DNA of 64,000 nucleotides, from assembly GCA_963732875.1 (NCBI GenBank), contig CAVTBD010000002.1:1687289-1751288 (forward strand), written 5' to 3'. Position 1 is the first letter of the stretch. Each line of letters opens with the position of its first letter. Of this stretch, positions 9,016 through 50,688 are shown in pieces. The notes under the pieces were generated by a model. It had not been told where the DNA came from. It worked only from the letters and a program-made list of their open reading frames with translations, and made no database searches. The position numbers and the translations under genes were made by a program. The DNA comes from an uncultured Alphaproteobacteria bacterium (GTDB lineage Bacteria; Pseudomonadota; Alphaproteobacteria; SMXQ01).

Positions 9016-9741
9016 ATGGCCGACGACACCAGCATCCTTGCCATGCATTCGGGCTACGACACCGACGGCGTCTATACCGACGGCTTCCTCGCGCGCCCGG
9101 CGCGCGGCACGGGGCTGCCGGGCGTGGTGCTGCTGTCGGGCATGGGCGGCATGACCTGGACCCAGCGCGAGATCACGCGGCGCTTCGCGCGCGCGGGCTT
9201 CGTCGCGCTCTCGCCCGACTACATGGGCGAGGCCCTCGACGGCCACGCCGAGCGGCTGCGCGCCAAGAACGCGCTGGACGTGGACGCCGCCGTCAGCCGG
9301 ATCGTCGGTGCCGCCGCCTTCCTGCGCTCGCTGCCATGGGTCGGCGACAAGGGCGCCGTCGGCATCATGGGCTTCTGCCTCGGCGGCGGGCTCGCGATCC
9401 TGGCCGCGGCGCGCAGCCGTGCGTTCCAGGCGAGCGTGATCTACCACCACAGCCTGTTCCCCGACGAGAGCGAGCTCGACGGGCTTGACGGCCCGATGCA
9501 GTACCACATCGGCACCGACGACCATTCGACGCCCCGGGTCGAACTCGAGGCCTTCACCGCCGCGCTCGAGCGAAGGCGCAAACCGTGCGAGGTCAACTGG
9601 TACGAGGGCATGGGCCACAGCTTCGCCCAGATCACGCCCGACGCCGACGTGCCCGCCGCCCAGAAGGAGGCGTCGGATCTCTCCTATCAGCGCAGCTTCG
9701 AGTTCCTGCACCGCGCGCTCTCGGGCAAGCGCGGGGCGTAA
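9016..9741 (+). CDS. Dienelactone hydrolase family protein
   Basis: GFCLGG nucleophile elbow, D and GHSF triad residues. Confidence 0.88.
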   Translation: MADDTSILAMHSGYDTDGVYTDGFLARPARGTGLPGVVLLSGMGGMTWTQREITRRFARAGFVALSPDYMGEALDGHAERLRAKNALDVDAAVSRIVGAAAFLRSLPWVGDKGAVGIMGFCLGGGLAILAAARSRAFQASVIYHHSLFPDESELDGLDGPMQYHIGTDDHSTPRVELEAFTAALERRRKPCEVNWYEGMGHSFAQITPDADVPAAQKEASDLSYQRSFEFLHRALSGKRGA

Positions 9742-9769
9742 GACGCGATTCGTTTGGGCCGCCTCATGT

Positions 9770-9864
9770 CGTCATCGCGAGGAGCGTAGCGACGAAGCGA
9801 TCCAGACTGCGCGTGGCCCCTACTGGATTGCTTCCGCCTCGCGACGCTCGGCGTCGCAATGACG
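9770..9864. repeat. Alphaproteobacterial REP-like palindromic element (GTCAT.GCGAG...GAAGC.ATCC / GGATTGCTTC...CGCAATGAC)
   Basis: Terminal inverted repeats cgtcatcgcga / tcgcaatgacg and inner gaagcgatccag / ctggattgcttc. Confidence 0.75.
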
Positions 9865-9889
9865 CGCCAGGCATTTTTCGCAGGAGCGG

Positions 9890-10255
9890 TTTCGGGGTTT
9901 GGATAAAGGGAGGGGTTCGCACGTCCTTGTTCGGACATGCGCGGGCCTCGGCCGGCATCCAGCCTGACGCCTGGAATCCCTGGGGAGAAGGGGCGGTCGG
10001 AGGAGGGCCGCCGGGGGTTACTGGGTGGCGGCAAGTCGTCCGGGCTCTTAAGCCTTCCCCCCGCCTTGCTGCGACGCGGGGTACGCGTGGGGGCACGAGG
10101 GGTGCTCCCGAGGTCGACCAGAGAAGGAATGCGTCGCAGCCCGACTGGGAAGCGCCCGCGCACTCTCCGATACGGGCCTCCCGCCCGACGGGGCGGAAAG
10201 CCTGCCGGATCCTTGGCCGACTCCCTAGGACGGTCGGCGATCGAATTCGACGATA
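9890..10255 (-). ncRNA. Candidate structured non-coding RNA downstream of a LexA-box promoter
   Basis: Nested perfect stems (9938-9946/10154-10162; 10068-10077/10131-10140; 10181-10186/10191-10196; 10216-10221/10233-10238); no credible ORF. Confidence 0.5.
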
Positions 10256-10258
10256 GCT

Positions 10259-10287
10259 ACACTAACATAGGAACATAACAAGAACAA
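10259..10287 (-). promoter_or_regulatory. Sigma70-type promoter overlapped by an alphaproteobacterial LexA (SOS) box
   Basis: GAAC-ATAACAA-GAAC at 10271-10285 (GTTC-N7-GTTC on minus); -35 TTGTTC, 17-bp spacer, -10 TAGTGT. Confidence 0.75.
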
Positions 10288-10354
10288 GTGGAATCTTCCG
10301 CTCAGACGCGAAAAATTGCGGCAGACACAAAAACTGCCCACCTAACAGGGGCAA

Positions 10355-10702
10355 TCACGGAAGCTTTCTCGTACCCTTTGGCCCCCAACGCTCCGCAACA
10401 CGTTTCTGATCCTCGGCAATACGCTTTCGTTTATCGGCAGTGCGCCGTTCCATTTCGGCAAGGCGCGCCTCTTTGGCAGCTTGCCGATCTTCATCCTCCA
10501 TCCGAAGCTCGTATGCCTTAGCAATCATGTGAATGTCGGAAAGGTGATCATCCATTTTTTCCAATATTTGTTCGGCGCCTTCTAATCTTTTGGAAAGACT
10601 GCTCAGCTCGTCCGAGCAACGCCGAACGTCGAGGGAAGCCCGCCAAACCCACCACCCAACAGCCAAAAGGATGATCGCAATGACGGCGATCTCTTCACCC
10701 AT
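10355..10702 (-). CDS. Hypothetical membrane-anchored coiled-coil protein (low GC)
   Basis: GAGG RBS, N-terminal TM helix (IAVIAIILLAVGWWVW), charged helical remainder. Confidence 0.65.
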   Translation of the reverse strand: MGEEIAVIAIILLAVGWWVWRASLDVRRCSDELSSLSKRLEGAEQILEKMDDHLSDIHMIAKAYELRMEDEDRQAAKEARLAEMERRTADKRKRIAEDQKRVAERWGPKGTRKLP

Positions 10703-10774
10703 GGTTTTTTCCTCGCTTCAAACTGAGGTGGACACATTTTGTCCTGTCATACGGACGCTTTCGGAAAGTCGTGG

Positions 10775-11470
10775 CTATTTACACCGAACATCGCGCAAAG
10801 CCCGCTTGACCTCCTGTCGAGTTAATCGGTCGAACTCTTCCACCTCTCCCGCATCGCACGCGGCAATTAAATCCTGTACGTATCGACCGCGTGGCTGTTG
10901 ACTGATGTCGGAGAGTTCTACCGATTTCTCCCAAACCCTGCCACGCTGACGCTGATAAAACGCTTTTTCTATACCGAGCAGAGGAAGCAGGAAACACCAG
11001 TGATATTTCGACTCGCGGAGAATTTCCGCACTTCTCCGCTCGATATCCTCCGGGCGCAAAGCACCTGTCGGGGCGAATGTTGCAACGGGACTTTCGGGAA
11101 TACCGGTACAGACCAACAGCCACACCTCACTGAGCCAATCGAATTCGTGCGAAGCCGCAATCTTTACCTTGCGCTCGATCGTACAACGGATGGCACCAAG
11201 AACAATGTCCGGGCTGTTCTGTGCAAACATCCCATATTGGCCGTCCGCTGCGAGCCTCCTTTCGTCGCCGCGTGTACCAGGTGCCGACCATGGATCAAGT
11301 TCCGTGACTTGAATTCCAATCTTTCGTCCATCCTTCAAATTGGCCACACAATCGACGCCCTTATCGGGTTTGCCTTGCTCGTTAGGATTGATGACTGGCG
11401 TCGAAAGGTCGAGGCGGAGCCGCAAGAGCAGCTCTTCGGCCCGCGCTCTTTCCTGTTCAAAGCTGACCAT
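10775..11470 (-). CDS. Hypothetical protein, possible PD-(D/E)XK nuclease-like fold (low GC)
   Basis: ~230-aa open frame; PDKGVD...IGIQVTE and EVWLLV patterns; start may be 11470 or 11491. Confidence 0.6.
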   Translation of the reverse strand: MVSFEQERARAEELLLRLRLDLSTPVINPNEQGKPDKGVDCVANLKDGRKIGIQVTELDPWSAPGTRGDERRLAADGQYGMFAQNSPDIVLGAIRCTIERKVKIAASHEFDWLSEVWLLVCTGIPESPVATFAPTGALRPEDIERRSAEILRESKYHWCFLLPLLGIEKAFYQRQRGRVWEKSVELSDISQQPRGRYVQDLIAACDAGEVEEFDRLTRQEVKRALRDVRCK

Positions 11471-11583
11471 TGACGTCGCGTTCCCAAGCAAGATGAAGGG
11501 GGTTCAGAATTACTGTTGCTAATTTTACTCCCCATCAAGAGTCGTGTCGCGCCCGAGGGTGGAACCACCACCCTTCTTCGCCC

Positions 11584-50601: not shown

Positions 50602-50688
50602 TGGTGCCCCCGGGGAGACTCGAACTCCCACGTCCTTGCGAACAACAGATTTTGAGTTTGCCGCGTCTACCGGTTCCGCCACAGGGGC
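50602..50688 (-). tRNA. tRNA-Leu(CAA)
   Basis: 87 nt GCCCCTG...CGGGGGC-ACCA, anticodon loop CTCAAAA, long variable arm, GTTCGAGTC T-loop; one A-C mismatch in the anticodon stem. Confidence 0.95.

Follow-up and report, generated by a model that had tools for sequence, protein, structure and literature searches.

The window, a 64,000-nucleotide stretch of a contig from an uncultured alphaproteobacterium, carries one member of a new and real family of dispersed units, each made up of a promoter and a structured RNA and, in the window's genus, a LexA-type operator. The source genome (G000) contains 31 full-length copies, and the family is known from two genera of one small group of uncultured Alphaproteobacteria. 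On balance, we think it probable that the unit is a dispersed element, once or still mobile, that encodes a LexA-repressed structured noncoding RNA (ncRNA). Each copy would be a small transcription unit in which a promoter with its box is followed by a ncRNA of ~340-360 nt with a multi-helix fold. LexA would keep the ~30 element promoters shut, and DNA damage would free the promoters of all copies together, resulting in a burst of this large structured RNA. We lean toward an RNA that either promotes the propagation of the element itself or is a riboregulator at times of damage.

Should LexA control these promoters, a single repeat would account for ~30 of the clear SOS boxes in a genome of 3.66 Mb and would also occupy a sizeable share of LexA's binding sites. 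Such an SOS output would be unlike the usual repair genes, prophages, and toxins. The family also represents a new large bacterial RNA that can be modelled, and its natural variation (31 + 2 + 2 copies, with dozens in the sister genus) is enough for structure work.

A dispersed repeat in the source genome

Using BLAST and three rounds of nhmmer, we recovered 31 full-length copies of a 381-position unit (~0.4 kb) from the four contigs of the source genome, with 21 copies on contig C2, nine on C3, and one on C4. The window copy (WIN) spans positions 9901-10297 on the minus strand. Of this interval, nhmmer delimited 9917-10297, and the 3' tail of ~16 nt was added from a comparison of filled and empty sites at the dnaE-rpsB locus. 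An earlier note, made from the letters of the window alone, had proposed a LexA-controlled promoter driving a highly structured element without a protein gene. It could not see the repeat nature of this element, so the main fact, the existence of 31 copies, was outside its view.

The copies are intergenic according to an open reading frame (ORF) filter, except for two with an ORF call over the 3' end. They neighbor unrelated housekeeping genes (e.g., dnaE, rpsB, dnaG, valS, ispG, and rplM), to which their orientation is mixed. We rejected the possibility that the unit is a 5' leader of downstream genes, since the neighbors are unrelated and the orientation to them is mixed.

A LexA-type box in a promoter-like site

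The window copy begins with AAGATTCCAC (10288-10297, minus strand), which are the unit's first conserved bases in the alignment of the 31 copies and their flanks. These are followed on the same strand by a -35-like TTGTTC (10282-10287), kept in the copy alignment, and 17 nt later by a -10-like TAGTGT (10259-10264). The -35 and the spacer are covered by a perfect GTTC-N7-GTTC direct repeat (10271-10285), a motif that we take to be the alphaproteobacterial LexA site. Both the perfect box and the leftward promoter overlapping it had been named in the earlier note, and both were recovered on the minus strand, the former by a sequence scan and the latter by reading the hexamers. A sigma-70 promoter scan of 9600-10800 reported none at the window copy.

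Within the window, the number of boxes is close to chance (2 seen versus 1.5 expected, with at least 2 in 42 of 100 shuffles). Hence, the weight of the window box comes not from window statistics but from its conservation across the copies, as 29 of the 31 have a perfect box. Genome-wide, there are 110 perfect GTTC-N7-GTTC sites, including these 29, while the extended form TGTTC-N6-TGTTC occurs at 31 sites, of which 20 are inside copies. Both GTTC halves are constant across copies and the 7-nt spacer between them is variable. The box is also kept in the single copies of two other species of the genus (G002 and G007).

All of the 31 copies except c16, whose promoter is interrupted by an insertion, open with (A/C)AGATTCCAC or CAGAAAAA(G/A)C. 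After this opening motif come, in order, CTTGTTC, the variable 7-nt spacer, GTTC, and a -10-like hexamer. Reading the alignment by eye, we assigned the hexamer as TATAA(A/G) in 16 copies, TAGTGT in nine, TATGGT in four, and TAGTCT and TAGCGT in one each. The commonest variant, TATAAA, is missing the usual final T, which counts against the promoter reading. In its general form, the putative promoter would consist of a -35 TTGTTC, 17 nt, and a TAnnn(T/A) -10, with GTTC-N7-GTTC placed over the -35 and the spacer.

Outside the copies, boxes of this type with the same T-rich spacers precede dinB, a radical-SAM gene, and an SNase-like gene in the source genome, and two such boxes, one perfect and the other with a single mismatch, precede lexA. 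The region upstream of recA (G000:C4:106332-106800, on the 193-kb contig C4) has only GAAC-N10-GAAC, and because recA has N10 spacing instead of N7, the box rule in this genome is not fully understood. With a direct repeat in a promoter-like site, the unit has the sequence features expected of a candidate member of the alphaproteobacterial LexA regulon. Transcription of the element, binding by LexA, induction by DNA damage, and a role for the RNA are all predictions from sequence.

RNA structure and strand

To define the structure, we aligned the 31 copies from the source genome with the single copies from the two other species (alignment A1, 33 sequences) and computed a consensus with RNAalifold. 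The consensus structure has 71 pairs in 13 helices, with 98.4% of cells paired. Compensatory changes on both sides were counted in 13 of the 71 pairs. Shuffles matched the observed value in 0 of 500 cases on four of five measures and in 15 of 500 for further pair types, statistics that overstate the support because the sequences are kin within one genome. Pairing was just 35-46% in slid controls. There were 298 G-U cells versus 13 A-C cells, and therefore the folded strand is the promoter-sense strand. The window copy folded with z = -2.21 on the sense strand (2 of 100 shuffles as stable) and z = +0.18 on the opposite strand.

From 5' to 3' on the minus strand, the structure begins with P1 (10204-10250), a long hairpin with a variable tip that comprises helices 1-2, in which three of 13 pairs changed on both sides. 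P2 (10173-10204; helix 3) is a variable hairpin with two alternative modules and has three of four pairs changed on both sides. P3 (10160-10173) is a small hairpin with an invariant CGGAGA loop, the GGA being there in 33 of 33 sequences. In the RNAalifold consensus, these hairpins are followed by the 5' strand of P4 (10154-10159) with the P5/P6 domain (together 10057-10159), and by a 3' domain (9941-10056) that comprises P7-P11, including a C-rich loop of the CCUCCC type, as well as the 3' strand of P4 (9941-9946). The structure terminates with the P12 hairpin (9919-9940; helix 13), in which four of eight pairs changed on both sides. Beyond it lies a semi-conserved, C-rich 3' tail belonging to one of two classes (9901-9918), which was delineated from copy alignments and is inside the insert at dnaE-rpsB.

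Most of the stems named in the earlier note lie where it had placed them. Its perfect 10-bp stem (10131-10140 with 10068-10077), which is P6, and the cttccc/gggaag extension of this stem, which is P5, are both part of the consensus. The long-range stem that it drew around them stands only in its core, P4, as the outer five base pairs (tcgga/tccga) have the local hairpins P3 and P12 as rivals. P12 is better supported than this outer stem because of the compensatory changes in four of its pairs. P4 itself is invariant across the sequences, and therefore covariation neither supports nor opposes it.

The 5' hairpins are alternative modules that appear in mosaic combinations across copies. The core is nearly identical in ~20 copies, and six copies, including the one in the window, have a minority core type.

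These data bear on whether the repeat is inert and decaying, such that the box and pairings are leftovers without present function. The family is limited to two genera, as might be expected of such a relic, and in one copy (c16; G000:C3:151502-156431, L097) an insertion of 4.9 kb separates the -35 from the -10 and was left unrepaired. This insertion contains two IS1595-family transposase genes and has a 7-bp duplication, ATGTTAG, at its flanks. However, all 31 copies are full length, pairing has been preserved by compensatory changes and alternative hairpin modules, and the box is kept in three species, all of which makes decay very improbable.

A second possibility is that the unit is a portable SOS promoter that reads out into neighboring genes, causing sense activation or antisense interference, with the fold merely acting as a stabilizing or insulating leader. 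In keeping with read-out, most copies have no intrinsic terminator downstream of the terminal hairpin. By our count from the list of copies, the nearest downstream ORF is co-oriented for 13 of 30 copies and convergent for the other 17, with none called for one copy. Yet the neighbors have no common function, ~300 nt of conserved and covarying structure far exceeds the needs of a leader, and the C-rich tail could equally serve Rho-dependent termination. For these reasons, we regard a portable promoter as improbable.

Coding potential and known RNA families

The earlier note saw no credible ORF in the element, and no ORF is conserved among the copies on either strand. The longest open frames vary in frame and length from copy to copy, and no hydrophobic or length-conserved peptide was found from any start column present in at least 12 copies. 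Nevertheless, we considered whether the unit could be a structured mRNA that encodes a small protein, for example a type I toxin induced by the SOS response. LexA-controlled toxin mRNAs with structure are known, namely tisB, dinQ, and symE, in which an SOS box precedes a structured transcript a few hundred nucleotides long, as is predicted for the element. The element differs from them in its 31 copies and in having no conserved or hydrophobic small ORF.

A hint of translation comes from the sister genus described below, where 10 of the 13 copies read have a strong Shine-Dalgarno-AUG arrangement after the first hairpin, with GGAAAGGAGGU followed by 5-6 nt and AUG, and the distance from this AUG to an anchor in the core is divisible by 3 in all eight testable copies. 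Against this, near-identical downstream nucleotides are read in different frames in the sister genus, and the window's genus has no conserved start with a frame of consistent length. We therefore find a small-protein mRNA highly improbable, and the type I toxin that the earlier note had offered as an option is disfavored along with it.

Another option, a known ribozyme or regulatory RNA family, gained no support from the Rfam searches, which agree with the earlier statement that the element belongs to no known family. At gathering thresholds, the sole match of Rfam 15 to the whole window was a tRNA at 50605-50688. Searching 9700-10450 at E-values up to 10 gave four chance-level matches, the best having E = 2.4. 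In the portions of the literature covered by a full-text search, no description of a LexA-box-bearing dispersed RNA repeat was found.

Among alphaproteobacterial small RNAs, the 'cuckoo' or CcsR-like sRNAs are multicopy, ~80-120 nt long with two hairpins and CCUCC-type loops, and are represented in Rfam. The element is similar in having several copies per genome and a C-rich loop that could pair with a Shine-Dalgarno sequence, but its RNA is larger by a factor of three to four and matches nothing in Rfam. We also rejected a protein sponge of the CsrB/RsmZ type, as GGA occurs 7-12 times per copy versus 5-7 expected, UCC is equally frequent, and few are in loops. The source genome has a csrA gene.

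Insertion sites, ends, and orientation

The position of the copies relative to terminators is precise. For 19 of the 31 copies, a run of at least 5 A/T bases ends 9-13 nt before the first conserved base, as compared to 1.5% of random windows. The bases between the run and the unit have no conservation, and therefore we read the spacing as target choice rather than as part of the unit. A terminator scan of the window located a terminator-like hairpin and T-run at 10310-10342 (minus strand), in the flank outside the unit. Comparison of genomes at dnaE-rpsB identified the upstream hairpin and T-run as the neighboring gene's own terminator.

The spacer between these two genes contains c17 in the source genome and the single copy in G002, and in five genomes of the genus it is element-free with a length of 177-217 nt. 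Comparing filled and empty sites placed the 3' end of the unit ~14-16 nt past P12. The dnaE-rpsB spacer of G007 (G007:C55; L144, 948-1501) contains a different, low-GC insert with a small ORF. The window copy is flanked by an SDR gene and a dienelactone hydrolase gene, whose convergent spacer also contains the single copy of G007. In G001, G003, G005, and G006, the stop codons of the two genes abut, and G004 has another insert. No exact boundary emerged at this locus, since other repeats had inserted there as well. The syntenic copies of the window and G007 are only 63% identical and among the least alike, while the G007 copy is closest to c22 at 74%, which means that gene conversion or repeated insertion must have occurred. 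A genus-wide flank search from one locus on C3 revealed no synteny.

The ends of the unit are unlike those of a MITE. No target-site duplication was apparent, as the longest word shared by the flanks averaged 6.2 nt versus 6.1 nt in mismatched pairs, and scanning two copies for terminal inverted repeats returned internal arms only. We also saw no fixed target tetranucleotide at the 5' junction and no copy-specific match of the flanks to internal or variable sequence. Established families of small dispersed repeats, including Correia/NEMIS in Neisseria, enterobacterial ERIC, and pneumococcal BOX/RUP, are ~100-200 nt with terminal inverted repeats, and Correia elements are additionally flanked by a target duplication. 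The element resembles these families in being dispersed and intergenic, in having an RNA fold without a protein gene, and in possibly supplying promoters. In contrast to them, it is ~400 nt, has neither inverted ends nor duplication, and combines a complete putative promoter at its upstream end, with a LexA-type box, and a fold of many helices that a long-range stem closes.

The sense strand coincides with the G-rich strand in 25 of 31 copies (one-sided binomial ~4e-4 by our own arithmetic), a strand bias relative to replication that is not specific to IS200/IS605-type elements. Under the LexA-repressed ncRNA reading, the element would have spread as DNA, because its promoter is copied along with the unit, into spacers 9-13 bp past terminator A/T runs. 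Insertion would mostly have placed the structured strand on the G-rich strand. Of the options given in the earlier note, the RNA of a non-autonomous mobile element fits best, considering the 31 dispersed copies and the empty sites in relatives.

The same observations can be read in terms of DNA instead of RNA. The fold might act in single-stranded DNA, making the unit a non-autonomous transposon that is cut and pasted on the lagging-strand template in the manner of the palindrome-associated relatives of IS200/IS605 (PATEs), in which case the 5' TTGTTC and GTTC repeats would be transposase sites and not a LexA operator and promoter. PATEs have no inverted ends, no target duplication, strand-specific structure, and an orientation bias relative to replication. 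The element matches them in all of these respects. Its structured strand is predominantly the G-rich strand, whose sequence is that of the lagging-strand template. Its many G-T-compatible pairs and its precise spacing from hairpin and T-run landmarks also suit a single-stranded DNA transposon. However, there were no matches to the Y1 transposase (PF01797) in the source genome, whereas the control matched in 6 of 14 genomes, and the 5' junction has no fixed target tetranucleotide. Moreover, the 5' 45 nt are promoter-like, alternative -10 modules keep TA at the same spacing, and the box is not distinguishable from the lexA and dinB boxes. Strongly transcribed genes, too, are usually co-oriented with replication. 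Taken together, we consider a single-stranded DNA transposon unlikely.

Group IIC introns are another comparison, as they insert next to terminators. The element is likewise found right after terminator hairpins and T-runs with a strand bias. It differs in having no match to a group II model, the sole reverse transcriptase in the genome is truncated, and the element's promoter is copied with the unit, which a route through an RNA copy would not do.

Distribution and the sister genus

The element is present in three of the eight genomes of the genus, with 31 copies in G000 and one each in G002 and G007. DNA and pattern searches gave no match in the 23 other genomes of the family or in the 17 other families that were sampled. 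When the genomes of 185,579 species were scanned for exact 20-mers, 11 stretches were returned, two of them with the element, and only the records matching G002 and G007 contain it. Matches in Phototrophicaceae, Actinomycetospora, and similar taxa were set aside as chance words. Scanning metagenomes gave four stretches, of which two were real, and both of their contigs were broken at the element. The sequencing runs listed with element words were all DNA and had small word shares. Plasmid, phage, and viral collections had no match, aside from one viral 19-mer match without the element. A pattern scan of 401 genomes of the class, a sample outside of which the sister genus falls, detected no other multi-copy carrier. 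It gave 1-2 matches in each of three genomes from beyond the family, which by eye resemble coding DNA.

A covariance model of the P3-P6 core (R1) extended the family to a second genus, with five weak matches in G008 and two in G018. BLAST with one sister-genus locus returned 41 matching pieces in G008 and 33 in G018, and by our own count a 69-nt promoter module is found in ~35 places in G008 and ~30 in G018. In both genomes, the module is often 200-390 nt from contig ends (loci L154-L190), and because many contigs end at this distance from the module, the true copy number in the sister genus is probably higher. R1 matches 11 sister-genus loci at E < 0.01, with P5/P6 kept. In an alignment fitted to the model, the sister-genus P6 is 98% paired and six of its 10 pairs covary.

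A LexA-type box was present in none of the four sister-genus loci checked. Therefore, LexA control does not extend to all members of the family. The sister-genus module has 2-4 T(T/C)TCCACA(G) boxes, which we take to resemble the DnaA box, upstream of CTTGTGCC. It also contains a TTCCAC motif similar to the AAGATTCCAC of the window's genus. If the promoters in the window's genus are LexA-controlled, the family would be a clean case of a repeat swapping its sensor between genera while its RNA fold was kept.

Candidate partner proteins

We searched the source genome for proteins that might mobilize the element. TnpB (PF07282) had 0 matches with a working control. There were also 0 matches to RRXRR/IscB (PF14239) and to the Y2 transposase, but the control for the former matched nowhere and that for the latter was silent. 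No intact IS110 was found, as the one PF01548 match has an internal stop and is a pseudogene. No intact reverse transcriptase was found either, and the single RVT_1 match is a remnant of 229 aa. This remnant (G000:C2:1316445-1319909, L054) is directly downstream of an IS5-family transposase and is truncated by the IS5 insertion. Since no transposase or other partner was found, mobility is left without a mechanism. The precise terminator spacing, together with the lack of inverted ends, duplication, and known transposase, points to an undescribed insertion mechanism.

One protein co-occurs with a high copy number of the element. An 82-aa Zn-ribbon protein is present in G000, G008, and G018, which are the three high-copy genomes, and the other 28 genomes of the family have one weak match only, in G016. 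This co-occurrence covers two lineages only. The gene adjoins an SRAP gene in G000 and G008, and it is near integrases in G000. The source genome encodes the 82-aa protein at G000:C2:775179-775424 and a small paralogue at C2:348864-349394, and both have GAAC-N7-GAAC inside their first codons. One of them is beside the SRAP gene and an integrase, and the other is near recJ and an integrase. An atlas look-up placed the protein in unnamed clusters only.

It is conceivable that the RNA provides the specificity of an unrecognized mobile system that is guided or assisted by RNA, in which it would serve some protein as a guide, a bridge, or a ribozyme-like partner. The omega RNAs of TnpB/IscB and the bridge RNA of IS110 have a large conserved scaffold at the end of the mobile unit and a variable tail. 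The element is similarly organized, with a large conserved RNA scaffold and then a variable 3' tail. Its precise insertion spacing without target duplication, as well as the presence of the Zn-ribbon protein in the many-copy genomes, would fit such a system. Unlike the known examples, however, the element is accompanied by no TnpB, only an IS110 pseudogene, and a reverse transcriptase cut by IS5, and it has no HEARO or other Rfam match. The flanks have no copy-specific match to internal sequence, and the tails are not unique but form two classes. The Zn-ribbon co-occurrence comes from two lineages, and the protein has its own SRAP/integrase context. We thus deem an RNA-guided system quite unlikely.

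We would also call it a long shot that this RNA does the work in a new mobile system with little protein, one that homes to the spacer 9-13 bp past terminator A/T runs on the lagging-strand template. In such a system, lineages would have wired the RNA to different replication or damage sensors (the LexA box or T(T/C)TCCACA arrays), and the Zn-ribbon protein of the SOS island might be a partner.

Neighboring repeats and a low-GC island

Between the SDR gene and the window copy is an island (10300-11550) with a low GC content (48-56% versus ~70%). It contains two minus-strand ORFs, 10775-11491 (238 aa) and 10355-10702 (115 aa), neither of which has a Pfam or PADLOC match. The only NCBIfam match was to an IncP KfrC domain and fell far below threshold (16.7 bits versus a cut-off of 99). 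The island is missing from the syntenic spacer of G007.

On its other side, the unit is followed by a REP-like palindrome (~9764-9876), in line with the earlier description of the element as ending at a REP palindrome. REP-like palindromes of the gtcatcgcgag...ctcgcaatgac type are found beside the window copy, c03, c09, c22, c26, and c31. They also occur in spacers of G007 and G000 and constitute a separate repeat family.
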